A stretch of DNA of 64,000 nucleotides from a virus, in IMG/VR virus record IMGVR_UViG_3300034102_002265, positions 1-64,000 of that record. One strand, given 5' to 3'. Under the pieces are notes generated by a model. That model saw only the letters and a list, made by a program, of their open reading frames with translations. It searched no databases and had not been told where the DNA came from. Positions 25,030 to 40,781 of the stretch are shown one piece after another. The first letter of the stretch is position 1. Each line of letters opens with the position of its first letter. The translations under genes were made by a program, and so were the position numbers.

Positions 25030-25863
25030 TCAACCTATGAGATCAAGTGGTGGTAATTCGTATTCATCCTTAAGTTGTTGTTCCAACTTTTCTATTTCTG
25101 CAACTCCATCATCATAGATTTGTCTTCCATTCAATTGAACTCCACCTGGAAGTAAAACTCCATTGAATTTAATCATATTCTGTCCCCACTGCTTTTTGAT
25201 GAGAGCAGTAAGGTATTTTTTTAACCACCAATCATTATAAAGTTTTGGAGTATCTGATGGGTCTACGATTCGATAACAATCAATAATTACATATTCATTT
25301 TCACCAACTTGCTGCCAGTCTATATCTAAGTATAATTTATGATTTAATTTGTTAAAACGAATTTGTGCATTAGGATTTAAAAGAAAATCCAAATCTTCAA
25401 GATATCTTTTAACCATCGCATAATTAAGGAGGTCTAATGCACCATAATAATAAACATCATTTAAAAATATCTGATATTTAATATTGAAAAGTCCATCAGA
25501 GATGGTACTAGAATTTATTTTTAAGATATTATTTACACCAATAATTGAATCCGGTAATGGAAGATAGTTAACTCCCTCTACATAATTGAGAGAAGTTAAA
25601 CCAACTCCAACAACATCTGAAGAAGATGTTGTTGCGGAACCTACTGGTCCTGGTTGAGCTAATGTTGCTTTAGTTGCAGGAGTAAGTTTGTGTTTTAAAA
25701 ATACACGATCAATACCATCATAATGTCTTTCATGAAAATATTGAATAGCATCATCTACTAAATTATCGATTTGATCATCATCAACATTTATCTCTAATAC
25801 AGGTTTACCCAATTGACGAAGACAATATTCGATTAATTCCTTTCTGTTATTAGGTGATGCCAT
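25030..25863 (-). CDS. gp13: Neck protein gp13
   Basis: YCLRQLGKPVLEINVDDDQ, KKQWGQN, LPGGVQLNG; ATAAATA at 25899-25905. Confidence 0.95.
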   Translation of the reverse strand: MASPNNRKELIEYCLRQLGKPVLEINVDDDQIDNLVDDAIQYFHERHYDGIDRVFLKHKLTPATKATLAQPGPVGSATTSSSDVVGVGLTSLNYVEGVNYLPLPDSIIGVNNILKINSSTISDGLFNIKYQIFLNDVYYYGALDLLNYAMVKRYLEDLDFLLNPNAQIRFNKLNHKLYLDIDWQQVGENEYVIIDCYRIVDPSDTPKLYNDWWLKKYLTALIKKQWGQNMIKFNGVLLPGGVQLNGRQIYDDGVAEIEKLEQQLKDEYELPPLDLIG

Positions 25864-25934: not shown

Positions 25935-26729
25935 ATGATTATATTAACAGGATCACAAGGTTTCATTGGAAAAAACTTTCTTTCCACTATTAAAGAGCCT
26001 ATAATAGAAGTGGAAAAGGATAATGCTTTTCGTTTTATATCTGGGTTTAATCAATGGGATCAAGTATCCTTAATTTTACATCAAGGAGCAATATCTTCAA
26101 CGACTGAGAGAAACATTCAAACGTTACATCACAATAATGTTGTCTTTTCTTTGTTTCTTTTTGAAAAAGCAATAGAGCATGGAATATCAGTAAAATATGC
26201 TTCATCAGCATCAGTATATGGAAATCAAACAAAAAAATCAAAAGTCATAAATCCACTAAATTATTATGCAATAACTAAACTTCAAATTGATTATTTTGTC
26301 CAAGATAATATAGAAAAATTTTCGAGTATTCAGGGATTTAGGTACTTTAATGTTTATGGGCAAGGTGAAGATCATAAAGGTGATCAAGCAAGTCCAATCT
26401 CTAAATTCACAAAACAAATTCGTGAATCAGGAAAATTGAACCTCTTCAGAGGATCAGACAAATTTTTAAGAGACTTCATCTGTGTTGAAGATGTTGTTGA
26501 TGTTGTTTTAAATAATAGCCATCCATCAGGAATCTATGATTTGGGAACAGGAAACCCTATTAGTTTTCAAGAAGTTGCAGAATTAGTCTCAGAAAAAGAA
26601 AAAGGGGAAGTCGAATATATCGACTTCCCCGAACATCTTAAAGGTAAATATCAAGATTATACTTGTGCTGACATGAAATGGATTGGTGACTATAAGTTTA
26701 AAACAGTTAGAGAGTATCTCCTTCAATAA
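25935..26729 (+). CDS. hldD: ADP-L-glycero-D-manno-heptose 6-epimerase (HldD/RfaD/GmhD)
   Basis: TGSQGFIG (GxxGxxG), HQGAISSTTE, YASSASVYG, PLNYYAITK (YxxxK), FRYFNVYG..EDHKG, RDFI. Confidence 0.9.
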   Translation: MIILTGSQGFIGKNFLSTIKEPIIEVEKDNAFRFISGFNQWDQVSLILHQGAISSTTERNIQTLHHNNVVFSLFLFEKAIEHGISVKYASSASVYGNQTKKSKVINPLNYYAITKLQIDYFVQDNIEKFSSIQGFRYFNVYGQGEDHKGDQASPISKFTKQIRESGKLNLFRGSDKFLRDFICVEDVVDVVLNNSHPSGIYDLGTGNPISFQEVAELVSEKEKGEVEYIDFPEHLKGKYQDYTCADMKWIGDYKFKTVREYLLQ

Positions 26730-27066
26730 TACGAATACTATCACTATCGAAATGTTGAGTTGAGAATTCAAACAACTCAGTATCTTCTAAGGCATACATT
26801 CTATGTCTTAATCCAACAGGAACATGAAAGTTTTGACCCTTTTTAAGGGTCCTTTTTTGTGCCAAATTAATGTCATCATCATACCCATAAAAAAGAATCA
26901 ACATTCCAGACTGCACATAGAATGTCTCATCTTTTATGTTGTGATAATGCCAAGAACACTTTTTCCCTTTTACAAAATATAAAAGTTTTCCACAATATTG
27001 TTCATTGTTTACAATCCATTTTTCAAATCCCCATCCTTTGGGGACAAATTTAATTGAAGAAGTCAT
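26707..27066 (-). CDS. Cupin-fold sugar isomerase (mannose-6-P/D-lyxose isomerase-like)
   Basis: KGWGFE, SWHYHNIKDETF (HxH...E), PVGLRHR metal-binding motifs. Confidence 0.75.
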   Translation of the reverse strand: MTSSIKFVPKGWGFEKWIVNNEQYCGKLLYFVKGKKCSWHYHNIKDETFYVQSGMLILFYGYDDDINLAQKRTLKKGQNFHVPVGLRHRMYALEDTELFEFSTQHFDSDSIRIIEGDTL

Positions 27067-27379
27067 CTGCATTCACCGCTTTGTCATCAATGTACATATC
27101 CCCACTTGGTTTGCCCATGATTAATTCATGATACTTGCATCCCCAATCATCCAATTGTGTTTTTGTTAGATTATAAAAATCCGCATAAGCTAGATTTGAA
27201 TTATCAAGATGTCTTCCCATACCACGAGCAGTAAAGTACTTGATAATATGTCCTTCCTCGTAAAGACGATTGATGGTATCAATACGGTCTAACTTTGGAA
27301 TACTATTATGATAGTAACCATCTTCTCTGCAAATGGGTTTATCACAAATTGTTCCGTCGATATCAATTACATAATTCAT
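27050..27379 (-). CDS. HAD-superfamily phosphatase (capless, capsule-biosynthesis phosphatase type)
   Basis: DIDGT, FTARG, GKP, YIDDK motifs I-IV. Confidence 0.85.
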   Translation of the reverse strand: MNYVIDIDGTICDKPICREDGYYHNSIPKLDRIDTINRLYEEGHIIKYFTARGMGRHLDNSNLAYADFYNLTKTQLDDWGCKYHELIMGKPSGDMYIDDKAVNADDFFN

Positions 27380-28118
27380 TCACATCTTCCTTTGATAATA
27401 CGTAAGTTCCTGGATATGATACAGCAATTGCGGCCGCCCTATTAGCAATGGGTATTGCTTCCTCTATTCTACCACAATTCAAATATCCGAACACAAGGGC
27501 AGATAAGAAAGTGTCCCCAGCTCCAACAACATCATAAACATTTACTTTTTCTCCCGGATATACTACTCCATTGTATTCAGCACCTTTTGATCCATGAGTG
27601 ATAATGACATTGGAGTTTTTTTCTTCTAACTTTTCATATTCATGTTCATTGATCTTGACATAACAATTGTATGAAGGAAGAATCTTCTTTTTACTGTCAA
27701 TAAATGTGGGACATTTCATGTTATAAACAATCTCAAATAATTTTGAACTCGTTATAAATCCCTTGTCATAATCACTAATTACGACCGCATCATATGGTTC
27801 ATTTGGAATTTCATATTCCATTGGTTTACAAACAACTTCTTCGTCAACTCTAAGAATTTGTTGATTTGTCCTTTCATCAATATAACGTGTCTTAATAATT
27901 TTTTCTTGATTTGTCATCATATAAACTTCAAGACCTAATGCTTTAAGATTGTTATAGACATTCCATGCCATCCCTTGTCTTGTTTCGGTTTTCTTGTAGT
28001 TTAAGATTGGAACAGGTGCTTCTGGATTCAATCGTTTAACTTCTCCATAAACATATTTGTCTATGCAACTATCTCCGATCAATAATACTTTGAATGATTT
28101 TTGTTGAGGAGTATTCAT
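27363..28118 (-). CDS. hldA: D-glycero-D-manno-heptose-7-phosphate kinase (HldE/RfaE domain I, PfkB family)
   Basis: IGDSCIDKYVYG, RLNPEAPVP, SDYDKG, DVVGAGDT. Confidence 0.88.
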   Translation of the reverse strand: MNTPQQKSFKVLLIGDSCIDKYVYGEVKRLNPEAPVPILNYKKTETRQGMAWNVYNNLKALGLEVYMMTNQEKIIKTRYIDERTNQQILRVDEEVVCKPMEYEIPNEPYDAVVISDYDKGFITSSKLFEIVYNMKCPTFIDSKKKILPSYNCYVKINEHEYEKLEEKNSNVIITHGSKGAEYNGVVYPGEKVNVYDVVGAGDTFLSALVFGYLNCGRIEEAIPIANRAAAIAVSYPGTYVLSKEDVNELCN

Positions 28119-28470
28119 CTATTCTATCAAAAAAAATTAATCTTTTTGCAAACTGAGATCCAATTACTGGTTTATTTTTCCAATCAGAACCTACTATCAT
28201 TATATCTGGATTGAACCCTTTTATCAATTCTTCCAACTCTTTATCATTAGAAAAAGTCTCAACCTGATCTACAGGTTTTAACATATTCAAGAAAAATCTT
28301 CTTTCATCTTGATTGTGTATTGGTCTAGATGTTCCTTTCTTTTCCTTTACCCGTTCGTCGTCATCAATAGCAACTATTAAATAATCACCATAAGATTTTG
28401 CAAAATTCAAAAGTTGTAAGTGGCCTACATGAAGGACATCAAAGGTTCCATTAACAAATATTTTTTTCAT
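28069..28470 (-). CDS. hldC: Heptose-1-phosphate nucleotidyltransferase (HldE/RfaE domain II)
   Basis: NGTFDVLHVGH (HxGH), LIVAIDDD, KGTSRPI, GSDW, YSSTKII. Confidence 0.85.
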   Translation of the reverse strand: MKKIFVNGTFDVLHVGHLQLLNFAKSYGDYLIVAIDDDERVKEKKGTSRPIHNQDERRFFLNMLKPVDQVETFSNDKELEELIKGFNPDIMIVGSDWKNKPVIGSQFAKRLIFFDRIDEYSSTKIIQSIIDRR

Positions 28471-30161
28471 TCGTTAGGAACTTTAACCAATTTTTGAATT
28501 TCGGGAAGATACATATATTCAATATCACTATTCTGAAGGGTATCAATTGCATCAACAATAGTTTCTACAAGAGGATCTCCGCCAAGATTGAATGAAGTAT
28601 TGAAGAGGATGGGAACATCACTCAATTTTTCAAAAGCATCAATAAGTCTATAATAATGATCATTCTGATCTTTTGTAACCGTTTGAATTCTACAAGTTCC
28701 ATCAACGTGAATTACTGAGGGAATTTTTTCTTCAACGCCAGGTAGACAATCTACAGCATACATCATATGAGGAGATTCTTCTCTTCCAGCAATATCAAAC
28801 CATTCATTCACTTTCTCTTTGAGAATTGTACAAGCAAATGGACGGAAGAACTCACGACGCTTAACTTGGTTTACGAGATCCTTGCCATTTTGAATGGTGG
28901 GATCAAAGAGAATTGAACGATTTCCTAGTGCTCTAGGTCCACCCTCTGAACGACCTTGGAAGATAGTAACAATATTACCATCACGAATAAGTTTTGCTAC
29001 CTCGTTATAAGTTGTGGGTTGAACATCCAGTCCTTCTAAATACTCTTCATAAGTTTCTGGATCATACTGAGGGCCATAATAAATTGAAGACTGTCTTTCA
29101 AATGGAGTTTCCATTTCAGTTATTTGTGCATGAGTATATTTTGCACCACCAATAGATGTTCCTCCATCATGGGAGATTGGTTCGCAGTAAATATTGAGAT
29201 CTGGGAATTCTTTCCAATACTTGTAGTTGGCAACACAATTTAGACCATAACCACCGCAGACAACGATATTAGTTTCACCAGTTTCTTCGTGAGCTTTACG
29301 AATGAGATCAATCATTCGGGTTTCAGTTTCCTTTTGTACTAAGAACGCTAAATCTTTTTGAATTTGAGTGTATTCACCTTTAGAATGATTTTTTACATCT
29401 TCGGAAAGAATATCATATCTTTGGTGATTTATTTTAGACCCATTTGGATAATTGGGTACAAATACTTCACGATTTGCCCACCCATTCCTAAAAAGTTCAG
29501 GAAGATCTTGATTTTCTTTTCCATATGGAGACAATCCCATTGTTTTTCCAGCATCTATGGAAGAAAATCCACAATACTCAGTTACCGCTTCATATGTTTT
29601 TGTTAGTCCTGGATATTCTGTGAGAATATATTTCCCATCCTCATCCAATTTAATAATACCGATACTTTCTTTGGATCCAAAATGTTTGTAAACAGAATCG
29701 AACTCTAATGGATATTTTGCTTTAAATATAGATTCAAATTCGTAAATGACTCCTGGACAAGCATCAGTCTGTAAGAAACTTCCAGCACCATCAGCAATCA
29801 CACACGCTGCAGTTTCAAATCCAGAATTTAAAAATGCACAAGCAGCGTGCATTTCATGATGTTTTGTGTCAATAAAATGAGTTTGATATTCAAATTTCTT
29901 TCTAGAAAGTTTTCTTATCCAACCATGATACAGATCTTCCCCAGTCCAATCTAGTTCAGGTCCGTTTCTATGAGTATGACATATTACTAAATGGTCAATA
30001 TGGTCTACATATTCAAATACTTTTAGTAGTCCTAGAAGTGGACTTCCATCGTGTTTCCAACGAGAAAGTCTTTCCTCTTCAACATAAAAAATTACTTCAC
30101 CATCAATCATCAGAGTTGTGCTTGCATTGTGTCCGCGAGCACAGGAAACAATAATACTCAT
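28467..30161 (-). CDS. O-carbamoyltransferase, NodU/CmcH/TobZ family
   Basis: GHNAS, EEERLSR, HHEMHA, DGAG, GKTMGLSPYG, GGYGLNCVAN, GPRALGNRS, KRREFFRPFA, HVDGTCRIQTV, NTSFN. Confidence 0.93.
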   Translation of the reverse strand: MSIIVSCARGHNASTTLMIDGEVIFYVEEERLSRWKHDGSPLLGLLKVFEYVDHIDHLVICHTHRNGPELDWTGEDLYHGWIRKLSRKKFEYQTHFIDTKHHEMHAACAFLNSGFETAACVIADGAGSFLQTDACPGVIYEFESIFKAKYPLEFDSVYKHFGSKESIGIIKLDEDGKYILTEYPGLTKTYEAVTEYCGFSSIDAGKTMGLSPYGKENQDLPELFRNGWANREVFVPNYPNGSKINHQRYDILSEDVKNHSKGEYTQIQKDLAFLVQKETETRMIDLIRKAHEETGETNIVVCGGYGLNCVANYKYWKEFPDLNIYCEPISHDGGTSIGGAKYTHAQITEMETPFERQSSIYYGPQYDPETYEEYLEGLDVQPTTYNEVAKLIRDGNIVTIFQGRSEGGPRALGNRSILFDPTIQNGKDLVNQVKRREFFRPFACTILKEKVNEWFDIAGREESPHMMYAVDCLPGVEEKIPSVIHVDGTCRIQTVTKDQNDHYYRLIDAFEKLSDVPILFNTSFNLGGDPLVETIVDAIDTLQNSDIEYMYLPEIQKLVKVPNE

Positions 30162-30170
30162 AATTTTACC

Positions 30171-31253
30171 TCAATTTTTAATGTCGTTTAATTCCAGAAT
30201 TTGATCAATTGTTTTTTTCTTGGTTGGTTTTGGTTTTTGGAATCCAGGCATTACACTTGGATTTATCGGAAGATTATTTTGACTTGTTCCATTTTTTGAT
30301 ACACCTGATAAATTCAATGTATCATTATTGACCTTACTTACGCCAATTTTATCTTTAATTGATTTGGAAATTTCTTTTATTCTTTCATTACTTAAAATCA
30401 TCAAATCTTCATTATTTCTATCATATTGATCTTCAAAACTTATTCTTATTGGGCTATATTTCCTTCTATTTTTTCCATTATCTACGATATGGAAATTTTT
30501 ATTATTTGGATAGGAAATATTTTCAGGATAAGTTGAACCTATAACTACAGTACTTGGTTTGTTCAATGCATATGCAATGTGTTGACCCATGCTGTCACAT
30601 CCCAGAAAATAGTCGGCAGCATTAATTATACCACCCCATTGTGTAATTGGTACATTCTGAGGACAAGCGACTCCAAGTTTATCCCAATCTGGAATTGGAA
30701 TTTGTGTCATTAAGATGACGCCATAATTTTTCTTCAATTCATCAATAACTTTGTATATATCCGAAAGTTCAAAACTTCTACCTGTGACATCATAAGTAAA
30801 TTTTCCTTCAACTTTTGCAGAACTGCCAAAAGGTTGAAAAACTACAATTTTATCTTTTTTTAGAACTTCTCTTACTTCTTCTACTAGATTATATCCGAAT
30901 ATTTGTTCTTGTTTGTTTAATTCTAAATTAATTTTTTTAGTATCTGGTATATGATTCAGTTCATTGATTAATATATCAAATGCTTGAATCAAATTACACT
31001 CTTGAGTGAAATATGCATTGAGTCTATAGGGTTCTGGACTTACAATTTCCTTATCAAGTAAAAGCGACTCAAATAAATTTTTATGATTAATAGGATAAAC
31101 TTTATCCCTTAGTACTTTACTACAGGAATAAAATTCTCCCCATGATTCGGCAACGACTATAAAATCGTCATGTCTTTTGGCATATTCTTCCAAAGCGGGT
31201 ATGGAACAAAGGACCCTACCCGCACCACCATTGATGAAAAATGCTTTATTCAT
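30171..31253 (-). CDS. GT-B glycosyltransferase resembling GT9 (ADP-heptose heptosyltransferase)
   Basis: N-terminal GGAGRVLCSIPAL (cf. GxGD..xxxPal), VFQPFGS, C-terminal ADYFLGCDSMGQHIAYALNKPSTVVIGST (cf. GT9 DSGxxHxAxAxxxP). Confidence 0.78.
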   Translation of the reverse strand: MNKAFFINGGAGRVLCSIPALEEYAKRHDDFIVVAESWGEFYSCSKVLRDKVYPINHKNLFESLLLDKEIVSPEPYRLNAYFTQECNLIQAFDILINELNHIPDTKKINLELNKQEQIFGYNLVEEVREVLKKDKIVVFQPFGSSAKVEGKFTYDVTGRSFELSDIYKVIDELKKNYGVILMTQIPIPDWDKLGVACPQNVPITQWGGIINAADYFLGCDSMGQHIAYALNKPSTVVIGSTYPENISYPNNKNFHIVDNGKNRRKYSPIRISFEDQYDRNNEDLMILSNERIKEISKSIKDKIGVSKVNNDTLNLSGVSKNGTSQNNLPINPSVMPGFQKPKPTKKKTIDQILELNDIKN

Positions 31254-31295
31254 TAATATTGTCCACCTTTAATAATTAAACTCGTTATACTCAGT

Positions 31296-31302
31296 TATTT
31301 AT
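31296..31302 (-). promoter_or_regulatory. Late promoter (ATAAATA) heading the GT9-carbamoyltransferase-heptose operon
   Basis: AAATAAATAAC about 45 nt upstream of the GT9 ATG; AAGGTGG ribosome-binding site. Confidence 0.65.
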
Positions 31303-31332
31303 TTTACTACTTTTGGAGTGTTTTATCAAATG

Positions 31333-32397
31333 TTATTTAAAGCAAATACAAACCAATCCCATTTTACCAGAACAATCCCCATACATACCAACCGCACCAC
31401 CAAAAGCACTTGAAGGCCAACCACCCGCACTAGGAACTCTTAATCTGCCACAACATGCTTGGTTAGCCGAACCGCAACAGATACCATCATAGAAAACTGT
31501 ACACTGAGACTCGGAAAGGAATCCAAAAACTGGTGGGTGACAGTAACAAGCCGCATTATTATTACCGCAACTGCATAGAGATGAGAACATTCCTTTTATT
31601 CCATATATCGAGCCAACAGGAGATGATCCATAATAATTTGCTCCAGGGGTGAATGGATGAATGCAGCATACGCCAACACCAGTTGCTGACCAACATCCAA
31701 AACTACCTCCCCCACAAACAGCGTATCCACATCCTTGACTACATTTTGATCCAAAATAACAAGAAGATACGGCATATCTGCCATTACATACCATCCACTT
31801 ACCCAGTTCCCCAATACCACCATCTACACAGAAATTGCATAATCCCGGTCCTTGAACGAAGGATTTATCTCCGTCTGGTCTATGGCAACCATATGTACAG
31901 TATGCACAAATTCTTGGAGCACATCCACTATGGATTGTATAAGTTGCTCCAGCTGTTACAGGAATAATAAGTGATGCATATGCACCAGTTCCACCAAAAG
32001 GAGATATAGAACAACACATTCCTCCACTACCAGAACCAGATCCAGCACCCCAAATCTGGAATCTTGCACAAGTTACTCCACTAGGAACAGTCCAAGTACA
32101 ATCCTTACCCTGAGAGAAATATTGATTAACAACACCATCATCCCCACAAACAGTAAATCCACCAGTCCATCCGGAACCAGCTGCTACACAAGACCAAAGA
32201 CTTGTTTGAGCTGGATTTGCTAGTAATGAAGGTTCTATGCACCGAACCCAACAACTATATTCAGGAGTAAACAAACTTGCAGAAACCGCAAGAGCAGTAG
32301 TTTGGGGTCCTTTTACAGCTATGCAAGCGCTCTTTTCGGAAACTTGAGTAGTTAAATAGTCTTTTGCATTTTCTGCACTGTATCTTAATACATCCAT
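31333..32397 (-). CDS. Cys/Gly-rich fibre or receptor-binding-like protein (paralogue 2)
   Basis: About 35 Cys in 354 aa; CTWTVPSGVTCARFQIWGAG glycine-rich phage domain. Confidence 0.75.
   Translation of the reverse strand: MDVLRYSAENAKDYLTTQVSEKSACIAVKGPQTTALAVSASLFTPEYSCWVRCIEPSLLANPAQTSLWSCVAAGSGWTGGFTVCGDDGVVNQYFSQGKDCTWTVPSGVTCARFQIWGAGSGSGSGGMCCSISPFGGTGAYASLIIPVTAGATYTIHSGCAPRICAYCTYGCHRPDGDKSFVQGPGLCNFCVDGGIGELGKWMVCNGRYAVSSCYFGSKCSQGCGYAVCGGGSFGCWSATGVGVCCIHPFTPGANYYGSSPVGSIYGIKGMFSSLCSCGNNNAACYCHPPVFGFLSESQCTVFYDGICCGSANQACCGRLRVPSAGGWPSSAFGGAVGMYGDCSGKMGLVCICFK
32042..32074. repeat. 33-bp exact direct repeat shared by the two Cys-rich genes (second copy 33898-33930)
   Basis: ccagcaccccaaatctggaatcttgcacaagtt at both positions. 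Confidence 0.9.
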
Positions 32398-32403
32398 GGA
32401 ATT

Positions 32404-33063
32404 TTACTGGTAATTTTTTAGAAGGTCTTGTATTTTTTCAGGAATCGGAAAAACTGATTCAAGAACATTATCAAAATTTGTATATTTCCAACTCATAAAA
32501 TATGGATTTTCTTCTATATACTTATCTATATCTTTTACGACTTCTGAAATTTGATCTAATAAGTCTAAAGAAACATCTTGGTCTTCACCTTTTTCTTTTT
32601 TTCCTTCTTCATTACTTAAAATAAAACCCAATCTATTACGAATAGCAGTTAAATTCAAAGTCACATAATTATCAAGATTATTTTTTGCAATCAGATTTAA
32701 TTTAATTGATTTTAATTCTGAGTCATAAACAGCGTCATAACAATCCAGTAAAGTTGGATTTTTTATTTTTTGATAAATATCTCCATTTTCCATAATCTCC
32801 TCTTCATATTCATATTCATGATTTTCTAAAAGATTTGTCAAATAATAACAAATTTCTGGTTGTTGTTCAGCATTAATTTTGATTAAACTGCAAGAATCAA
32901 CATCGTAATGTTCTGGATTAATGCCATTAATAATGCCAGTAGGGGTGTGAACCAATACATTTATGTATTTTGGTCCATCATAAGTTAAAGAAATTTCTTT
33001 CCCTTCATCAAAAGAATTGATATAAAGTTCATCTGGCATTGGATAGGAAAATGTTTTTATCAT
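32404..33063 (-). CDS. Hypothetical protein between the Cys-rich paralogues (possible fibre chaperone)
   Basis: Acidic 219-aa ORF with its own ATAAATA at 33085-33091; function inferred from position only. Confidence 0.6.
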   Translation of the reverse strand: MIKTFSYPMPDELYINSFDEGKEISLTYDGPKYINVLVHTPTGIINGINPEHYDVDSCSLIKINAEQQPEICYYLTNLLENHEYEYEEEIMENGDIYQKIKNPTLLDCYDAVYDSELKSIKLNLIAKNNLDNYVTLNLTAIRNRLGFILSNEEGKKEKGEDQDVSLDLLDQISEVVKDIDKYIEENPYFMSWKYTNFDNVLESVFPIPEKIQDLLKNYQ

Positions 33064-33104
33064 GACTCAATAAAAATTTTTAGTTATTTATTAAAAGAAA
33101 CCGA

Positions 33105-34220
33105 TTATTTAAAGCAAACACAAACCATTCCCATTCTACCGGCATCACCACAAATCGATAAACAACCACCAGCAACTTGCATCGCAAAACCACCAGAACC
33201 AGGAAGTAAAAGAGATGCAAGTACTGCACCAAAAGTAGCGCTAGCCGAACAGTAGTTTCCACCACAACTGGTGGAACTACTGAGAGAAAATACGCACTGT
33301 GAAGATGATTCGAATCCATAAATTGGTGGATTTTTGTGATACCCACATTTACAGTAGTGGGCCATACAACTCTCTCCATATGCACCAGCAATACCATAAA
33401 CAGTTCCACCTGTAGCTGAACCATAAGATAATGCTGAAGAATGGTACGCAGGAAGCATCATGTGGGGATTACTTGAAAATCCACTTCCACAACACTGGAT
33501 AGTAGGAACTGCTTCATTGAATGGAGTACTAATCGTTGTAGAACAGAAACTAGATCCAGTACCACAAATGCAATATCCAAGAAATGACTGACAAGTATAT
33601 GCAGGTCTAGCGTCTATAATACCAGTTTTATAATAATAAACATCTCTATCAATCATTTGTTGACAAAGATTTCCTATTCCACCCATGGCACAGAAGTTTG
33701 TTAGTCCAGGCCCAGTGATATAAGAAGCACAACCATTTCCATTACTTATACAGTTCCAACATCCATAACAACATAGAGCGCAACCAGCACAAAGAATATA
33801 TTGACATCCAGCAGTTACAGGCATAATAACTGATGCATAAGCTCCACTTCCACCAAAAGGTGATCCTCCACAACAACCAGCAGCACCAGAAGAACCACCA
33901 GCACCCCAAATCTGGAATCTTGCACAAGTTGCCCCACCAGGCACTGTCCATGTACAAGTAGCTCCACATCTAAAAAATCCAGAAGTATCGCAAACTTTAA
34001 ATCCAGAAGTCCATCCAGAACCAGTCTCTACACAAGCCCACAGTTCTGGTCTAGGAATTTTACCATTAATAATACTAGGAGCATTAGTATTAACAGTGGA
34101 CAAATAAGTGCTACAATTACTATTTAAAGTAGAAATACATGATGTTAAGGTATTATTGCAAGTCCTTAAAGGTTGATTTTGTTTATTTAAGGAGTTGTAT
34201 GCTAAAACGTCTATTGTCAT
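33105..34220 (-). CDS. Cys/Gly-rich fibre or receptor-binding-like protein (paralogue 1)
   Basis: About 36 Cys in 371 aa; CTWTVPGGATCARFQIWGAGG; C-terminal GRMGMVCVCFK. Confidence 0.75.
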   Translation of the reverse strand: MTIDVLAYNSLNKQNQPLRTCNNTLTSCISTLNSNCSTYLSTVNTNAPSIINGKIPRPELWACVETGSGWTSGFKVCDTSGFFRCGATCTWTVPGGATCARFQIWGAGGSSGAAGCCGGSPFGGSGAYASVIMPVTAGCQYILCAGCALCCYGCWNCISNGNGCASYITGPGLTNFCAMGGIGNLCQQMIDRDVYYYKTGIIDARPAYTCQSFLGYCICGTGSSFCSTTISTPFNEAVPTIQCCGSGFSSNPHMMLPAYHSSALSYGSATGGTVYGIAGAYGESCMAHYCKCGYHKNPPIYGFESSSQCVFSLSSSTSCGGNYCSASATFGAVLASLLLPGSGGFAMQVAGGCLSICGDAGRMGMVCVCFK

Positions 34221-34225
34221 TTTTA

Positions 34226-34501
34226 TTATGCCCTCGTTATAGAAGTTACATTTCCGGTGCCGGAGTCATAAGTTATAGTAACTGTATAACTAGATGATCC
34301 TATAGTTTCGATGTATCCCGTAATTTTATTTTCAGAATCATAAGTAATACTACTCAACCTCTTATCACCATAAGTTACAGAAGTCACTCTTCCTAGGCCA
34401 TCTTCAACTAAGTCAGAACTCCTAGTAAAAGGTCTTGTTCTAAAATTATAAGCCTCTTCATCAGGATTTCTAGATGGAATGTTTCCAATATACCTAGCCA
34501 T
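34226..34501 (-). CDS. Small beta-rich protein with three xTY[GD] (YD-like) hairpin repeats
   Basis: VTSVTYGD, LSSITYDS, VTITYDSG; MARYIGN start typical of small fibre-associated proteins. Confidence 0.65.
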   Translation of the reverse strand: MARYIGNIPSRNPDEEAYNFRTRPFTRSSDLVEDGLGRVTSVTYGDKRLSSITYDSENKITGYIETIGSSSYTVTITYDSGTGNVTSITRA

Positions 34502-34514
34502 TTAATTAGCCTCC

Positions 34515-34832
34515 TTACACAGCTTGAACAATGCCATAAACAGAAACCGAAACATTAGCATTGTTTGAATAAACAACAATGTTCTTGGTTGCAGTTAAAG
34601 TAACACCCGTTCTTTCCAAAACTCCATTGCCGGGAATAGTTGTATCATATTCAATCCACTCGGCATTAGTTGGGGTTCCTGAAGCTGATGCGGCAACTCT
34701 AACTACAGCAGCAGTTGTTCCTCTGTTTGCAATACTAATGTTCACTACTGCATAGTTACTTGCAGGAACTGTATAAACTGTAGTATTAGTTGTTGCGCTT
34801 GGTGCAGATTGAGATAAAATTGCAGAGGCCAT
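34515..34832 (-). CDS. Small structural/adaptor protein
   Basis: TTVYTVPA, WIEYD, GVLERTG; TATAAATA at 34860-34867. Confidence 0.7.
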   Translation of the reverse strand: MASAILSQSAPSATTNTTVYTVPASNYAVVNISIANRGTTAAVVRVAASASGTPTNAEWIEYDTTIPGNGVLERTGVTLTATKNIVVYSNNANVSVSVYGIVQAV

Positions 34833-34859
34833 TTCTAATCAGATAATTTTCCTTTAAAG

Positions 34860-34867
34860 TATTTATA
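34860..34867 (-). promoter_or_regulatory. Late promoter TATAAATA heading the Cys-rich cassette
   Basis: Exact consensus. Confidence 0.8.
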
Positions 34868-34884
34868 AACTTAATGAAAATAGT

Positions 34885-37800
34885 TTATGAAACTCCAATA
34901 AAATATGCAAATGCTTTAGCATCTTCTATAGCACCTTCCACATCAGCTCTACTTGTTCCACCTAAGAAATTAGCATTCAAATTAGTACATACTGTAGAAG
35001 AAGCAACAGAAACTGGTGCAGTTCCCTGAGCAACGTTAGATACAAATCTTGTTGCAGTTACGATGCCACTGATTGCAATACCATTATTGAATACAACGTT
35101 TCCAGTAAATGTTGGGTTAACCGTTTGGTTAAATGCAGTTCCGTTACCAAGAAGAATTGCGCCACTTGCTGGGAGTCCAGTTAAACCAGTTCCACCCTTA
35201 GTAATTGGAACAGCAGCAGATAAGTTTGCTGGATCAATATAATAAGAAGGCGATTGACTACCTAAAGTAGCAGCATCAATATCACCAGTAGTGGAATTCT
35301 TGATACTTACTTGACCGTCAACACCAACAGTAAATGTGGATGTCTTAAATCTAGCGACTCCAAGTGTAGAAAATGTATCTAAAGAAGAAGCGACACGATT
35401 TAGGGAGATATTAATATTTCCATAGTAAGTATTGACTCCTACACCACCTGGGGCAGAATCAAAACTTGTTGCAGTAACCTGGATTGGTTGGGTGGTTCCA
35501 ATTCCAACACTCTTAACTACTTTTTGGTAAGCTGAATTTCCTGCCAAGAATGTATCTTGAGTTGCAGATCCTGAACCAAGTCTTGTTGGAGAAACAGTTC
35601 CAGAAATAATATTAGAAGCATCAATATCAGACTTAGCGAGTAAAGACCAGTTACTATCTAAAGCAGAAGAAGTATTTACCGTCGCAGAGTATCTTACATT
35701 TTGTTTTGTTACAGTAAGTGTAGTTCCAACTCCAACTGTAGATATTCCTACAGCATTTAAAGTTACTCCATTAGCCGACTGAGTTGCATCAGATTGAGTT
35801 GTATGGAATGTAAATGCGTTGGTAGTTACTGATCCAACATAATAGAATCCACCTGTCGTAATTCCTGTTGGAGTTGCCCCAGTAACTTTAATTGCATCAC
35901 CAGATGCTAATCCATGATTAACAAATACTAAAGTATTTTTGTTTTCATCTATAGTATTTCTTATGAGGGAATGAGTTCCAGTTCCACTCGAAGTAAGTGA
36001 TATTGGTGAGGCAATTGCGTAAGTATTAAAAACTTGTACAGAACCAATACCAACTTTCTTAATGTAATAAGTATTTCCATTAATTAGACCACCAATTGAA
36101 TTACCACCATTATTTCTGTAAATAACTGGATCACCATCACCTAAGTTTGTATTGTCTATAATAATTCTATTATTAAAGAAGTCTACATTACCACCCGTAT
36201 TATAATCTGTTGGATCGAATGTTTTAGTTACGACAGTACTGAGATTAGTAGAAATAGCGACAGCGTTTCTATCTTGAATATAATCTGGAAGAGCCGTTGA
36301 TCCTGGGAATTTTTGGTTATTTGTGAGTTTTAAATATAGTCTAGTCTCTACATTCCCTATAGTAATCTGGAAATTAGATCCTCCAGTTCTACCACCAATT
36401 AGAGCTGGATTATTTAAAGTTAAAACATTCCCAGTAGCATAATATCTACCACCAGTACTGATAGCAACGTTTGAAACAGTTCCAGCTGCACTAACAGTAA
36501 CGGTAGCTGTAATACTTGTACCAATACCAGTTACTGAGTTTAGAGAAACACCTGTATAAATGCCTGGACTTGTATATCCCGATCCACCGCTAAGTGAAGT
36601 GAGATTGAGAGGGACACCCTTAACTAAACCTGTAGTTCCATATGCTACTGATGTTGGAGCAGTAACGATACCAATAGCGTTTCCAGCGGATAAAGCACTC
36701 GTAACAGTATCTCCATTCAAGAAATTATAATTTGTTGTTGGGGAATCTAAAATTAAATATTCTTGGATAGTATCTTGAACAAGGACATAAGAATTTTCTG
36801 GTTCAGCAGCAGTATCACCTTGTCTAATGTTTGCAGCAGGAATGTAGTTTACGAGAGAAGTTTTTCCACCAATTGTAGTAACAGTAATGAAATTAACCAC
36901 TTTTGGTGGAATTAAATCTGCATTAATTTGTCCAGATGCATTCAGTTGAACAATATTATTTGGAATAGCACTGGTACTTACTCTCTTATCAATAAAATCG
37001 CCTAAGCGATTATTCATGAATGTTCTTACTGCAAGTTGAGTGGATACTCTCTTATTCAGTGGTCCACCAATTTCAGTTTCACCTAAATTAACATCTGAGG
37101 AGAATTCTTCAATAACTGTACCACCAGAAAGACTCAATCTAAGTGAATCCAACTGACCAATTGTAACTTTATTATTGAAGATAATATTACCAGTTCTGTT
37201 ATATGCGGTAATAAAATCACCAATCTTAAAGTCACCTAGTTCATTAGTACCTGAGGAATATACTCTACCACCTTGTTCCGATACTTGTTCTGAAGAAGGA
37301 ATTGTTTTACCGCCATTTTGTGGTAAAGCATTATAGTCAATACCAGATCCAGAATATTCCCAAGTATGCGAAGAGGAGTTGATTATAGATGGTCTATGGA
37401 AGTGGAGTTTATATGTTTCTGGAAGATCTCCAATGTCTGGAATTACATTACCAGGTATAGTAGAGTCTACTTTTGTTTCTACAGTAAAATAAGTTGTAAT
37501 TCCAGCAACTGCAGTCACTCCTATCGATATTGGTGACGCAGTATGATCGGCAATTGGATTTGGTGAGGATGCAGAAAATAGATTTTTTATACCACCTACA
37601 GATTCTACAGAAACAATAAGACTTCTAGTAGATGACAAATAAGTTAATGCAATACCTACAGCAGTTCCACCACCAGCAAGAACTTGCGTTACTTCTCTAC
37701 CAGAAACAAACTTTAATGTAGAACTTGTAGATGCAAGACTTACTCTTTGATAGACATTATGTGCATCTATGATTTCATAAGCAAAGAAATCTTGATTGTT

Positions 37801-40728
37801 CTTAAGGAAAGTATTGATGCCTACAAATGTAGATCCTAATGATACAAGTCTTGTTAAGCTATCATCTTCATAAAGTCTAAAACTACTTGCATCAATATAT
37901 CCAATATAATATTGGTTTTTACTAACAAGTCCACCAATTACTTGTTGGGGAATGCTTTGTTCATTTCCAATATAAACGACACTTTCTCCATTAATAAATG
38001 GGTGTGCAGGTATTGTAATTACGCTAGTTGCAGTATTTACTGAACTACCTACATTAAACTGTTGTTGTACTAAGAGTGGTTTAAAGTTTGATGTTACATC
38101 ATTATCATTGTCATCGAAGAATCTTAGTACATATAGATCTTGTTCAGATCTCCCAAGTCCAACAGTTTTAAGAGTCTGAAGTCCTCCAGAAACTCCCGTT
38201 GCAGCAACTCTACCTCTATCAAATGTAAATGAATTTGGACTGAATCCGGTAGATCTAAGAGCATAATAACCAAAGTTAGTTGCTGAGTTGGTAATTGATA
38301 GATAGCCGCCAGACTGTGTTAATGAACCATATCGACAGAAGATCTGGAAACAAGAAACAACCTGAGCATAACCATCATTAATTGTTCTCCAACCAATACC
38401 ACCAAACGAAACCATGGTAAAGGTTGCTGCGACCATGGACTTACCGAATTTAGGTAAATCGCCAACTGGTGGTTTTTCTGCTTCTTCAGGTATTGCAGGA
38501 ATATTGTTATCCTGAACTTTAGATCCATCTACTAAAATACCATTTCCACCAAGGAATGAAAGAATGGAACAGTTCTGGATATATGGAGATTGGGTAATTT
38601 TTAATTTACCTAATTGAGCAGTTCCCCCTCCATCATAATAATGTTGTATTGTTGTAATTCCTGCTTTGATCGTAAATTCTACAGGAGATCCAGTAGAAAT
38701 AATATCAAAATCACGTTGACCATTTGCATTCGATTCTGGGTAGAAAACTGTTGTAACTCCAGCATCATAATTGCAAGTAAATCCTAATCCGGAAAGTCTT
38801 ACTACTTGTCCTTTAATCAATTGGTGAGGAATATCAGTAGTTATTGTTGTAATTCCAGTCGCATTATTATAATAAGCATCAACTACGTTAACAATGGTTC
38901 CACCATATCCAACTCTATTAACAGATGAATCAAATGGATCATCAAAAGCAACAGTATAATCAAATGTATGTTGTGGAACTCCATCAATAACATAATCTTT
39001 CATTGAAATGTTTGTTATATAACAACCATTTCTTACTCTGAATAAATCTTGTCCTGCATGTAAAGGTCTTACAATGGTATTTCTGAGTGAATCACCTGAA
39101 ACAGAAATGCCATCTGCAACAATAAGAGGGTTGTTTTCTACATAATCTCCACCTTGAACAAATACGGTAACCGCATCTAGAGTTTCTGGTTGTGGATAAG
39201 TTTTTGTTGGTGCAAAGCCAATTCCACCAGAAATAATAGCTGTTGTAATTCCAACATATGAACCTATTGCAGACCAAACATTAGCGCAAGATGCAATACT
39301 ATAACTATCTTTATCAACTGTTTGATCATACGCAATAGTAAGATCATATTGTTGAGTAAGAACTAACTGATATGTTGTTGGTACTGCAGTATTGTTTATG
39401 ATATATCTAGAAATAGTAGTAATATATTGGAAGGCAGCTACGGTTTCTGTAAGTCTATCATCAAATGAAGCCTTTACAAGTTGATAGTATTTAATTGTTG
39501 CATCAACAGTTTTTGAATTTCCTCCATAAGCTAAGTCATGGATAAATCCATCTAAAATGTATCCAATATAAAGTTTAGCGTTATTTGAATTGTATCCTGG
39601 ATCTCCAACTATGGATGGATATTGATTTTGAATATATGCAACAACTTCTGCCTTAATAAATTCTTTGTTTAATTTTACTAGATTGGAACCATCTATAAAT
39701 CTAGAATCGACAGTATTTTTTAGCCTTTGTGAGGCAAGTTGCAATCCTCTCCGTATAGTTTGTACTGGTAAAATTCTACCATCGTTACTATCATCACCGT
39801 CAAGAGCCGATACTACAATTCTAGTTTGTGCAGATGAACCAGCCGAACCAAAGGTAACATTTCCAGCTCCATCAGTTATTAGAGCTTGGCCGGGTCTACC
39901 ATCTACAGTTGGGAAACTTAATCCACTAATAATTGCAGATTCTAATGTTGAAATTCCTATAACATTTATAGCACTTAGGATACCTGCCTTACCTGTTATT
40001 GTACCATCTAGTACTAAATCGGATCCAAAACCTACAAAACCATCTACATAAAGACTTTGGCCAATACCAACACTTCTATCAACATTTAGGTTGTCATTAA
40101 GTTGTACAGAACCATCTACCTCTAGAGTGCCACCTATTTCAGTAAAAGAAGATACACTTAAGGTATTGCCTATACTAACAGAACCAGTTAAAGAAGATTT
40201 ACCACCTACACTAAGACTTGCTCCTACACCTAAGTTATAACCAATTTGACCAGCACCACCAGCGGTTAAATTGGAACCTATTCCTACGGATGTTCCTACA
40301 GAAAGGCTACTTCCTATAGAAACAGCAGCTCCAACTACTAAACTAGACCCAATGGAAACACCATTGACGACGGATAAATCGGAACCAAATCCAGCTAAGC
40401 CACCAACACTTAGGTCTCTAGTTACTGTTATATTTTTTTGAGCAAGTAGATTTGATGAAAATCCAACTGCTCCTGCAACATCTAATCCATCTTGCAAAAA
40501 GGTAGATCTATTAACAGTAAGATTATCCTCAACAATAACAGATCCAGCAATTGTTCCACCAACCGAATTGGTAAAATCTGTTCTTAACAACTCAAATCCA
40601 TTTGGTTGCGAACCATCGTGAACATGAACTGATTTGTTGGTAGTATTTACAGTAAGTTCACCGGACGCGCCAGTAAAAGCTACGTGTTCTTCCTTTGTAC
40701 CTCTTCTGAGTTGTACCTGTTTAGTCAT
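34885..40728 (-). CDS. Large tail fibre/spike protein (1947 aa)
   Basis: N-terminal Mtd_N-like MTKQVQLRRGT...GELTVNT...VHDG; VGxxLxV beta-helix repeats; GDDSNDG...PVQTI pectin-lyase-like entry; repeated HxxxxGDxVxY modules; CATAAATA upstream at 40764-40771. Confidence 0.85.
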   Translation of the reverse strand: MTKQVQLRRGTKEEHVAFTGASGELTVNTTNKSVHVHDGSQPNGFELLRTDFTNSVGGTIAGSVIVEDNLTVNRSTFLQDGLDVAGAVGFSSNLLAQKNITVTRDLSVGGLAGFGSDLSVVNGVSIGSSLVVGAAVSIGSSLSVGTSVGIGSNLTAGGAGQIGYNLGVGASLSVGGKSSLTGSVSIGNTLSVSSFTEIGGTLEVDGSVQLNDNLNVDRSVGIGQSLYVDGFVGFGSDLVLDGTITGKAGILSAINVIGISTLESAIISGLSFPTVDGRPGQALITDGAGNVTFGSAGSSAQTRIVVSALDGDDSNDGRILPVQTIRRGLQLASQRLKNTVDSRFIDGSNLVKLNKEFIKAEVVAYIQNQYPSIVGDPGYNSNNAKLYIGYILDGFIHDLAYGGNSKTVDATIKYYQLVKASFDDRLTETVAAFQYITTISRYIINNTAVPTTYQLVLTQQYDLTIAYDQTVDKDSYSIASCANVWSAIGSYVGITTAIISGGIGFAPTKTYPQPETLDAVTVFVQGGDYVENNPLIVADGISVSGDSLRNTIVRPLHAGQDLFRVRNGCYITNISMKDYVIDGVPQHTFDYTVAFDDPFDSSVNRVGYGGTIVNVVDAYYNNATGITTITTDIPHQLIKGQVVRLSGLGFTCNYDAGVTTVFYPESNANGQRDFDIISTGSPVEFTIKAGITTIQHYYDGGGTAQLGKLKITQSPYIQNCSILSFLGGNGILVDGSKVQDNNIPAIPEEAEKPPVGDLPKFGKSMVAATFTMVSFGGIGWRTINDGYAQVVSCFQIFCRYGSLTQSGGYLSITNSATNFGYYALRSTGFSPNSFTFDRGRVAATGVSGGLQTLKTVGLGRSEQDLYVLRFFDDNDNDVTSNFKPLLVQQQFNVGSSVNTATSVITIPAHPFINGESVVYIGNEQSIPQQVIGGLVSKNQYYIGYIDASSFRLYEDDSLTRLVSLGSTFVGINTFLKNNQDFFAYEIIDAHNVYQRVSLASTSSTLKFVSGREVTQVLAGGGTAVGIALTYLSSTRSLIVSVESVGGIKNLFSASSPNPIADHTASPISIGVTAVAGITTYFTVETKVDSTIPGNVIPDIGDLPETYKLHFHRPSIINSSSHTWEYSGSGIDYNALPQNGGKTIPSSEQVSEQGGRVYSSGTNELGDFKIGDFITAYNRTGNIIFNNKVTIGQLDSLRLSLSGGTVIEEFSSDVNLGETEIGGPLNKRVSTQLAVRTFMNNRLGDFIDKRVSTSAIPNNIVQLNASGQINADLIPPKVVNFITVTTIGGKTSLVNYIPAANIRQGDTAAEPENSYVLVQDTIQEYLILDSPTTNYNFLNGDTVTSALSAGNAIGIVTAPTSVAYGTTGLVKGVPLNLTSLSGGSGYTSPGIYTGVSLNSVTGIGTSITATVTVSAAGTVSNVAISTGGRYYATGNVLTLNNPALIGGRTGGSNFQITIGNVETRLYLKLTNNQKFPGSTALPDYIQDRNAVAISTNLSTVVTKTFDPTDYNTGGNVDFFNNRIIIDNTNLGDGDPVIYRNNGGNSIGGLINGNTYYIKKVGIGSVQVFNTYAIASPISLTSSGTGTHSLIRNTIDENKNTLVFVNHGLASGDAIKVTGATPTGITTGGFYYVGSVTTNAFTFHTTQSDATQSANGVTLNAVGISTVGVGTTLTVTKQNVRYSATVNTSSALDSNWSLLAKSDIDASNIISGTVSPTRLGSGSATQDTFLAGNSAYQKVVKSVGIGTTQPIQVTATSFDSAPGGVGVNTYYGNINISLNRVASSLDTFSTLGVARFKTSTFTVGVDGQVSIKNSTTGDIDAATLGSQSPSYYIDPANLSAAVPITKGGTGLTGLPASGAILLGNGTAFNQTVNPTFTGNVVFNNGIAISGIVTATRFVSNVAQGTAPVSVASSTVCTNLNANFLGGTSRADVEGAIEDAKAFAYFIGVS

Positions 40729-40781
40729 AGTACCACGGGTAAACGCAAATCTTTCTTCTGTTTTATTTATGGAGGTTTTAA

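Follow-up and report, generated by a model that had tools for sequence, protein, structure and literature searches.

What are the "lipopolysaccharide (LPS) genes" of T4-like cyanophages for, when they are found within a tail-fibre module? The question is raised by positions 25935-34867 of a 64,000-nucleotide (nt) stretch of viral DNA (the window in what follows, i.e., positions 1 to 64,000 of IMG/VR record IMGVR_UViG_3300034102_002265), in which genes for a GT9-like glycosyltransferase, a carbamoyltransferase and putative heptose-supply enzymes stand beside two genes for Cys-rich fibre proteins. The source record, of which the window is a part, is 76.7 kb long, approximately 36% complete and belongs to a T4-like cyanomyovirus. 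The answer that we favour, with a probability of roughly 0.45, is that these genes form a module, expressed late, for the decoration of a virion protein, most probably the phage's own fibres. This was also the interpretation of the original prediction, and the enzymes, the placement of promoter motifs and the linkage to fibre genes support it; it is less secure in that gene linkage is all that suggests the acceptor, and in that the transferase is missing the expected catalytic Asp.

The gene set as such has been in print since 2005. Its known members are those of P-SSM2 (PSSM2_307-313), S-SSM7 (SSSM7_120-133), S-CAM1 and Sf-FS3, of which the first three were published as "LPS genes", T4-GC 302-308 (PMC1079782, PMC3037559); an alteration of LPS was proposed for them by Sullivan et al. 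(PMC1079782), and the set was also described, with no function assigned, as "functional or stuffer DNA" (PMC3037559). The window does not differ in kind from this set and adds a further member, from an uncultured relative, rather than a new discovery. The closest isolates are the Prochlorococcus phages P-SSM2 and P-SSM5, in both of which the GT9-like protein is 62% identical; gene order in P-SSM2 (PSSM2_301-313) is identical to that of the window, at 41-65% amino-acid (aa) identity, PSSM2_302-306 being the counterparts of the 105-aa, 91-aa, first Cys-rich, 219-aa and second Cys-rich proteins described below. A megablast search of the region against phages returned nothing beyond short 75% matches in single-amplified-genome (SAG) viruses. 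Our literature search found no paper linking the "LPS genes" to Cys-rich fibre genes, and no fibre-linked or virion-glycosylation account of them. What is added here is a family-wide Arg signature in the transferase, a concordance across eight genomes, and the occurrence of Cys-rich neighbours of differing folds.

The transferase (360 aa; 30171-31253, minus strand) was identified from an AlphaFold (AF2) model and its donor motif. The model (25 homologues, predicted local distance difference test [pLDDT] score 77.6) is folded over residues 1-306, and structure alignment (VIA-align) places its predicted GT-B fold closest to GT9 structures: Z was 20.2 for a Veillonella GT9 protein (3tov), 18.9 for WaaF, 18.6 for TibC (4rap; root-mean-square deviation [rmsd] 3.4 Å over 262 aligned residues), 17.9 for WaaC and 17.6-18.4 for chloroplast NDH subunits with the GT9 fold, as against 12.8 or less for other GT-B families (the Foldseek E for the GT9 fold was 7e-9). 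On this model, the scores do not separate LPS-type from protein-type GT9 enzymes. Sequence comparison gave less, i.e., a Pfam PF01075 score of 19.5 bits (cut-off 22) in a match confined to residues 204-259, and no GT9 match when PDB sequences were searched with a family profile; the "GT9" label of the original prediction stands by fold (Z 17-20) and falls short by sequence. The donor side is better preserved. GT9 enzymes carry a C-terminal ADP-heptose-binding motif, D-[ST]-G-x-x-H ... G-x-T-x-P, and the window protein retains it as D-S-x-G-x-H, with D220, S221, G223 and H225 invariant; with hhalign, residues 199-247 align with WaaC 240-288 and WaaF 254-304, so that the protein resembles WaaC and WaaF in both fold (Z 17-19) and aligned donor motif. 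Cyanophage and distant members of the family alike have this motif and a QPFG motif without variation. Residues 311-360 (30171-30320) are a disordered Lys-rich tail ending in a short helix (consensus KKK-x-ID-xx-LEL), which is near-invariant among cyanophage homologues, is missing from distant members of about 300 aa and may be a docking peptide.

The gene that follows encodes an O-carbamoyltransferase of the NodU/CmcH/TobZ type (564 aa; 28467-30161, minus strand), an assignment that proved unambiguous. The protein is full length, both Pfam domains score above threshold (Carbam_trans_C 9e-59, 198.2 bits, cut-off 27; Carbam_trans_N 5.5e-22, 79.1 bits, cut-off 24), and the structures of TobZ, GdmN and NovN match it at 1e-45 to 1e-57, the TobZ match (1e-45) spanning residues 11-548.

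The heptose donor would be made by the remaining enzymes of the cassette. These comprise an HldC-like heptose-1-phosphate adenylyltransferase (133 aa; 28069-28470, minus strand; TIGR02199 1.6e-31, CTP_transf_like 2.4e-17), an HldA-like heptose-7-phosphate kinase of the PfkB family (251 aa; 27363-28118, minus strand; TIGR02198 2e-41, PfkB 8e-17) and an HldD-like ADP-heptose 6-epimerase (264 aa; 25935-26729, plus strand; TIGR02197 2.5e-64, Pfam Epimerase 2.7e-23). The HldA, HldC and HldD types are the best NCBIfam matches of the three proteins and to that extent fit the predicted heptose pathway, but all three score below the equivalog cut-offs. Two smaller enzymes, both predicted from the outset, were found to have the expected motifs. 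A minimal HAD phosphatase (109 aa; 27050-27379, minus strand), a likely substitute for GmhB, has the DxDGT motif and matches PDB 9iqw (2.6e-11), 1xpj (2.4e-7) and TIGR01689 (3e-7), and a cupin (121 aa; 26707-27072, minus strand; Pfam Cupin_2 3e-7) has an intact metal site with HxH...E and ...H motifs. No match to the SIS-type GmhA (PF13580) was found in the 76.7-kb record, in complete P-SSM2 or in complete S-SSM7, while controls matched. The cupin has weak matches to L-ribose and D-lyxose/mannose isomerases, and 12-17% of members of related Atlas clusters carry Lyx_isomer or MannoseP_isomer; given the missing SIS-type GmhA in P-SSM2 and S-SSM7 and this weak likeness, it may replace GmhA, or else the host may supply the step. 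GenBank and PHROG label the HAD protein a "phosphoheptose isomerase" and the cupin a "cysteine dioxygenase"; the former label, as used for P-SSM2 and by PHROG, is mistaken. The cupin and HAD genes are adjacent, and accompanied by heptose genes, in P-SSM2, S-SSM7, S-CAM1, Sf-FS3, S-SM2 and P-TIM68; a gap of 150 nt separates them in S-T4, and in Sf-CH8 the gene beside HAD is annotated as a "putative nucleotidyltransferase". Where related loci have the HldD-like gene, it mostly runs opposite to the GT9-like gene, without exception in the closer loci; in about 10 of the more distant loci, the two share a strand.

The two Cys-rich proteins, which lie directly upstream of the transferase, stand out in the window by their composition. 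Protein 1 (371 aa, 36 Cys; 33105-34220, minus strand) and protein 2 (354 aa, 35 Cys; 31333-32397, minus strand; PHROG 35878 4.6e-59) are paralogues, as predicted, with 36% identity by BLASTP (E 6e-50), and their Cys contents are 9.7% and 9.9%, whereas the 33 open reading frames (ORFs) of at least 150 aa in the window have a median of 0.52%, the highest value outside this pair being 2.5%. The AF2 model of protein 1 (38 homologues, pLDDT 80.5) begins with an N-terminal helix of 47 residues, which leads into a beta-rich head; this head matches the fibre of cyanophage Pam3 (7ypx_A; Z 13.1, rmsd 3.4 Å, 193 aligned residues), the tail tip of mycobacteriophage Bxb1 (9d93_Qa; Z 12.0) and the glycine-rich domain of ALK (Z 7.3-9.6). 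The fold that head residues ~67-370 have in common with Pam3, Bxb1 and ALK/LTK is that of the glycine-rich-domain fibres, and matches in BFVD were to "glycine-rich domain" proteins of phages and giant viruses. Modelled in this way, with a helix and a glycine-rich head like those of the Pam3 fibre and Bxb1 tail tip, the Cys-rich proteins are fibre-tip proteins. Where they differ from the other glycine-rich-domain fibres is in their ~10% cysteine and its conserved clusters; an alignment of 38 sequences has about 10 conserved Cys columns, including CC at 115-116 and CxxCxxCC at 143-150. A 114-aa ORF (33080-33424) that overlaps Cys-rich gene 1 in a different frame is almost certainly spurious.

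The arrangement of these genes places the enzymes inside the structural module. Nearly all genes of the window are on the minus strand, with T4-like landmarks (neck, sheath-stabiliser and terminase genes) recognisable among them. From the gene for a 1947-aa fibre towards the neck gene (25030-25863), the order is 105-aa, 91-aa, Cys-rich 1, 219-aa, Cys-rich 2, GT9-like, carbamoyltransferase, HldC-like, HldA-like, HAD and cupin, with the HldD-like gene convergent on the plus strand. The coordinates first given for these genes were all correct, and the description of a tightly packed, mostly overlapping operon was borne out: from the GT9-like gene onward, the junctions are a 9-nt gap and then overlaps of 4, 50, 17 and 23 nt.

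The timing of the operon is suggested by its promoter motifs only. A T4-type late promoter has (T/N)ATAAATA shortly upstream of a late gene on the coding strand, and the copy predicted to head the enzyme operon (31296-31302, minus strand; full form AATAAATA, not TATAAATA) is indeed present, 43 nt upstream of the GT9-like ATG at 31253, in keeping with a pattern seen throughout the window. The window has fewer copies of ATAAATA than expected by chance (24 vs. 33.5), yet 21 of the 24 are on the coding (minus) strand and 13 precede an ORF start by 13-47 nt. Among these 13 are the copies ahead of the long fibre (40764-40770, 36 nt ahead of its start), the 105-aa gene (34860-34866, minus strand, 28 nt upstream of the ATG at 34832), the 219-aa gene (33085-33091, minus strand, 22 nt ahead of the ATG at 33063), the GT9-like gene and the neck gene. 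Given this strand bias and spacing, it is reasonable to read the copies as late promoters, so that the operon would probably be expressed late.

Would such an arrangement hold in other cyanophages? A comparison set was assembled from 80 IMG/VR loci (GT9-like protein at 53-80% identity) plus P-SSM2, S-SSM7, S-CAM1 and Sf-FS3, identity over the whole set being 45-80%. In 81 of 83 cyanophage loci, the carbamoyltransferase comes next after the GT9-like gene, and wherever there is sufficient upstream sequence the GT9-like gene has one, two or three Cys-rich ORFs ahead of it, for the most part with 7-13% Cys and 12-27% Gly; 151 of 157 of these ORFs are homologous to the pair in the window. No related phage examined carries the GT9-like and carbamoyltransferase genes independently of Cys-rich fibre genes, an occurrence that would have counted against the original prediction. 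The heptose genes behave differently. Adjacent copies occur in no more than roughly half to three-fifths of cyanophage loci, and a 98%-complete genome that lacks them there has HldA-like and HldD-like genes ~33 kb away; every complete or near-complete cyanophage genome with the GT9-like gene (five in total) has ADP-heptose genes too. Among eight complete cyanomyovirus genomes, the heptose genes are present in every one, and four (P-SSM2, S-SSM7, S-CAM1 and Sf-FS3) have the transferase together with two or three Cys-rich fibre genes each, whereas S-T4, S-SM2, P-TIM68 and Sf-CH8 have neither, and keep their heptose genes next to hli genes, in large glycan clusters that include other glycosyltransferases. 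The heptose supply is therefore a portable sub-cassette, linked to the fibre system here as proposed without being specific to it, and the transferase, carbamoyltransferase and Cys-rich fibre genes are a tight unit. Sensitivity mattered in establishing this concordance: tblastn with a Cys-rich protein reached only P-SSM2, P-SSM5 and SAG viruses, even at E 0.05, and the copies in S-SSM7, S-CAM1 and Sf-FS3 were detected only by a profile built from the Cys-rich alignment. Interspersed among the cassette genes of S-SSM7 and Sf-FS3 are 2-oxoglutarate (2OG)-Fe(II)/prolyl-4-hydroxylase-like oxygenases and a second carbamoyltransferase-like gene, and S-SSM7 additionally has a tryptophan halogenase and denV there; these interleaved genes hint at further tailoring steps.

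The pairing extends beyond the cyanophages. Searching with an alignment of distant members of the family added another 31 viral loci (16 distinct types) whose homologues are 24-38% identical to the GT9-like protein. Seven of the 16 types have an ORF of at least 6% Cys within four genes upstream of the transferase, and in an eighth type the distance is seven genes. Gly-rich ORFs of 4-6% Cys occur in several of the others, and three contigs do not extend far enough for a verdict. The Cys-rich neighbours in these loci are not homologues of the cyanophage proteins, one being an RCC1 propeller (3e-45) and two weakly Lcl_C-like. In the locus L120, an 8%-Cys gene directly downstream of the transferase encodes a tail-tip fibre protein (Phage_Tail_Tip 5e-16); this locus falls outside the seven types, its type having been scored on L121, where the same gene has ~4% Cys. 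Seven of the 31 loci have a carbamoyltransferase gene that either adjoins the transferase or is at most a few genes off. In 78-kb Vibrio phages (D505), the homologue lies between genes for a 2109-aa and a 1756-aa protein, the second of which is annotated as a tail protein, and no sugar genes were found nearby. This 1756-aa protein (L003 9729-14999), encoded immediately after the homologue, has repeated A-C-x-C-A-x-A-Y-A-D-G-I-V-T motifs and a Cys-rich N-terminal stretch. Four viral contigs with a GT9-like match (L111, L117, L118 and L119) have very few ORFs under table 11, perhaps because a stop codon is recoded in them or because their sequence quality is poor. The repeated pairing of the transferase with Cys-rich proteins across folds is the most interesting result of the analysis, and statistically it is no more than suggestive since each locus is short and has the transferase at its centre.

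How, then, might such a system work? The phage would make ADP-L-glycero-beta-D-manno-heptose itself, as the family matches suggest, through the HldA-like kinase, the minimal HAD phosphatase in place of GmhB, the HldC-like adenylyltransferase and the HldD-like epimerase, with the cupin possibly in place of GmhA. The transferase, whose clade we refer to as "GGxGR" after its altered active-site loop, would bind the ADP-heptose and most probably pass the heptose to the Cys-rich fibre-tip proteins in the cytoplasm, before or during fibre assembly, and the TobZ/NodU-type enzyme would then carbamoylate a hydroxyl of the sugar, as WapO is thought to do on the core heptose of Pseudomonas. The benefit could be fibre stability, masking or host range. 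A complex prediction for transferase residues 1-310 with Cys-rich residues 55-370 scored 0.00, which is evidence neither way. The closest mechanistic precedents are TibC and AAH (the BAHT family), which have the GT9 fold and heptosylate proteins in the cytoplasm (PMC4358343); like the mechanism proposed here, theirs uses ADP-heptose to modify a secreted adhesin before it leaves the cytoplasm. That phages can decorate their virions with their own glycosyltransferases is known from mycobacteriophages, in which such enzymes act on the capsid and tail tube (work cited in PMC11256854, among others). The glycosyltransferase families, sugars and targets described there are different, and the glycan has been observed, whereas the system in the window is known from its genes alone.

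The strongest competitor, which we regard as rather unlikely, is the published "LPS gene" reading of Sullivan et al. (PMC1079782), in which carbamoyl-heptose would be added to host LPS or another surface glycan, the linkage to fibre genes then being explained by the joint adaptation of two proteins, one that binds the receptor and one that modifies it. Such remodelling of the host envelope could block superinfection or keep progeny off debris. Several observations speak for it. WaaF and WaaC are among the closest folds to the transferase, and characterised GT9 enzymes use LPS as acceptor in most cases. The closest chemical analogue is likewise an LPS feature: in Pseudomonas, a heptosyltransferase paired with the O-carbamoyltransferase WapO (PA5005), to which it is attributed, yields 7-O-carbamoyl-heptose in the core (PMC8005017). 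Moreover, the heptose genes of S-SM2, S-T4, P-TIM68 and Sf-CH8, in their hli-side clusters, resemble those for synthesis of a surface polysaccharide. The setting of the window genes is different, however. Unlike the genes for the LPS inner-core heptosyltransferases WaaC and WaaF, they are in a phage fibre module behind late-promoter motifs, and exclusion functions would be expected early. Cyanobacterial LPS is reported to be without heptose, as the original prediction noted for Synechococcus, and also without Kdo (PMC4515613); with a Kdo-lipid A/heptose core thus reported missing, the host would not be expected to offer the usual GT9 acceptor. None of the hli-linked glycan clusters contains the transferase, which tracks instead the presence and absence of the Cys-rich fibre genes, and the homologue of the transferase in the unrelated Vibrio phages sits between tail genes. 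It is for these reasons (late motifs, position in the fibre module, presence or absence in step with the fibre genes, neighbouring tail genes in unrelated phages, and a host LPS reported to lack heptose and Kdo) that virion decoration is favoured here.

Decoration of the fibres nevertheless has a number of points against it, the foremost being in the transferase itself. Residues 12-23 (GRVLCSIPALEE) align with WaaC 12-23 (GDVLHTLPALTD), and the loop after strand 1 reads GGAGR-VL where WaaC has SMGD-VL, with identical residue numbering, so that Arg13 takes the place of WaaC Asp13, i.e., the position where Asp13 of WaaC and Asp110 of TibC act as catalytic base. In TibC, this Asp is essential, and a D110A mutant is inactive (PMC4358343). 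With the Asp replaced by Arg, the transferase could be inactive or could follow a different chemistry. The replacement is a property of the family: an exhaustive profile search recovered 537 clusters, Arg13 is invariant in two family alignments, nearly all of ~85 full-length representatives have GGxGR, and the signature is retained in the 30%-identical Vibrio phage homologue and in a 17-sequence alignment of distant members. Within this analysis, members of the GGxGR clade were met in viral or unnamed metagenome sequence only. The TibC-type N-terminal extension is missing as well; residue 1 of the model aligns with TibC residue 97, and no sign was seen of the iron finger and dodecamer known from TibC. 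Given the family-wide loss of the Asp, the modelled protein is best described as GT9-like in fold and donor site, and neither a standard GT9 enzyme nor a BAHT member. An invariant E74-P75-Y76 could, judging from its conservation, be the source of an alternative base.

The acceptor side is no simpler. TibC targets Ser in beta-helix repeats, whereas the alignment of Cys-rich proteins has no conserved Ser or Thr column, and their conserved Cys clusters could be disulfide or metal sites rather than sites of modification. In the literature search, no report was found of a glycan on any cyanophage virion. The comparative evidence has its own weak points: the cyanophage loci are interrelated, so that shared descent partly accounts for the conserved order, and the sample of four genomes versus four is small and non-independent. 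In the distant loci, a Cys-rich neighbour is frequent but not universal, and enrichment is modest, with nine of ten Cys-rich ORFs within four genes of the transferase compared with 69 of 116 for all ORFs (counted within 7 kb either side of the transferase, in short loci that are centred on it).

The loss of the catalytic Asp leads naturally to a second alternative, improbable in our estimation, that the GT9-like protein is non-catalytic, e.g., a nucleotide-sugar-binding or structural assembly factor for the Cys-rich tips, and that the carbamoyltransferase and heptose genes serve another target. There is precedent for a GT9 fold without enzymatic function in PnsB1 of the chloroplast NDH, whose GT9-fold subunits are, as noted, almost as close to the model as WaaF, and this reading would accord with the family-wide Arg, the Pfam score below cut-off and a Vibrio phage gene that stands alone among tail genes. 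It fares less well with the invariant D220, S221, G223 and H225 and the QPFG motif, which are hard to explain without a ligand, with the ADP-heptose genes in five of five complete or near-complete genomes, with a carbamoyltransferase that directly follows in nearly all cyanophage loci, and with E74-P75-Y76 as a possible substitute base.

If the transferase is instead an enzyme, a bolder version of fibre decoration may be entertained, on which we would wager little: that members of the GGxGR clade are cysteine S-heptosyltransferases, in which the Arg stabilises a thiolate and (carbamoyl-)heptose is placed on fibre-tip Cys. It would account for the Cys-rich tip proteins, of folds unrelated to one another, that stand beside the enzyme in distant phages, and for Cys being the only conserved candidate acceptor residues; it is correlation only that speaks for it. 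Least probable of all is an acceptor of another sort, i.e., a small molecule, phage DNA or a different virion protein (the 1947-aa fibre, sheath or capsid), for which one could cite the natural-product sugars carbamoylated by the relatives TobZ, GdmN and NovN and the oxygenases, second carbamoyltransferase-like gene and halogenase (the last in S-SSM7) interleaved in S-SSM7 and Sf-FS3, but which leaves the tight, repeated pairing with Cys-rich tip proteins unexplained and finds no polyketide or peptide scaffold genes within the window; DNA glycosylation is unlikely, there being no DNA glycosyltransferase among the top fold matches.

The remaining proteins of the cassette have yielded less. The upstream boundary is the 1947-aa long tail-fibre protein (34885-40728, minus strand; Pfam Mtd_N 2e-13). 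It is followed by a Cys-free 105-aa protein (34515-34832, minus strand), for which tblastn gave matches in 46 of the 83 related loci, and a 91-aa protein (34226-34501, minus strand), found in 18 of 83, with a weak YD/RHS-like repeat (Pfam RHS_repeat 0.0048, below cut-off). The term "adaptor" first applied to both was a guess, and the former matches a PHROG tail-fibre family instead (PHROG 11338 "tail fiber protein", 1.8e-12). "Chaperone" was likewise a guess for the acidic 219-aa protein (18.7% D+E; 32404-33063, minus strand) between the Cys-rich genes, for which there was no Pfam match and nothing usable from an Atlas search; most related loci have a low-Cys (0-1%) ORF of ~210-255 aa in this position. 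Elsewhere in the window, a 549-aa protein (20420-22069) with DUF5661 and weak helix-turn-helix (HTH)/IF2_N-like matches adjoins a small-terminase-like gene.

What would it mean if these phages decorate their own fibres? Genes that have been known for 20 years as the "LPS genes" of abundant ocean viruses would gain a function, virion glycosylation would extend beyond mycobacteriophages to marine T4-like phages, and a GT9 clade with altered catalytic machinery would be defined. If the genes act on the host surface instead, the finding would be an ordinary one. The idea is directly testable, since P-SSM2, S-SSM7 and S-CAM1 are cultured isolates. Glycans at the fibre tips could affect the host range and particle stability of the viruses that control Prochlorococcus and Synechococcus, and their losses to grazing and adsorption.

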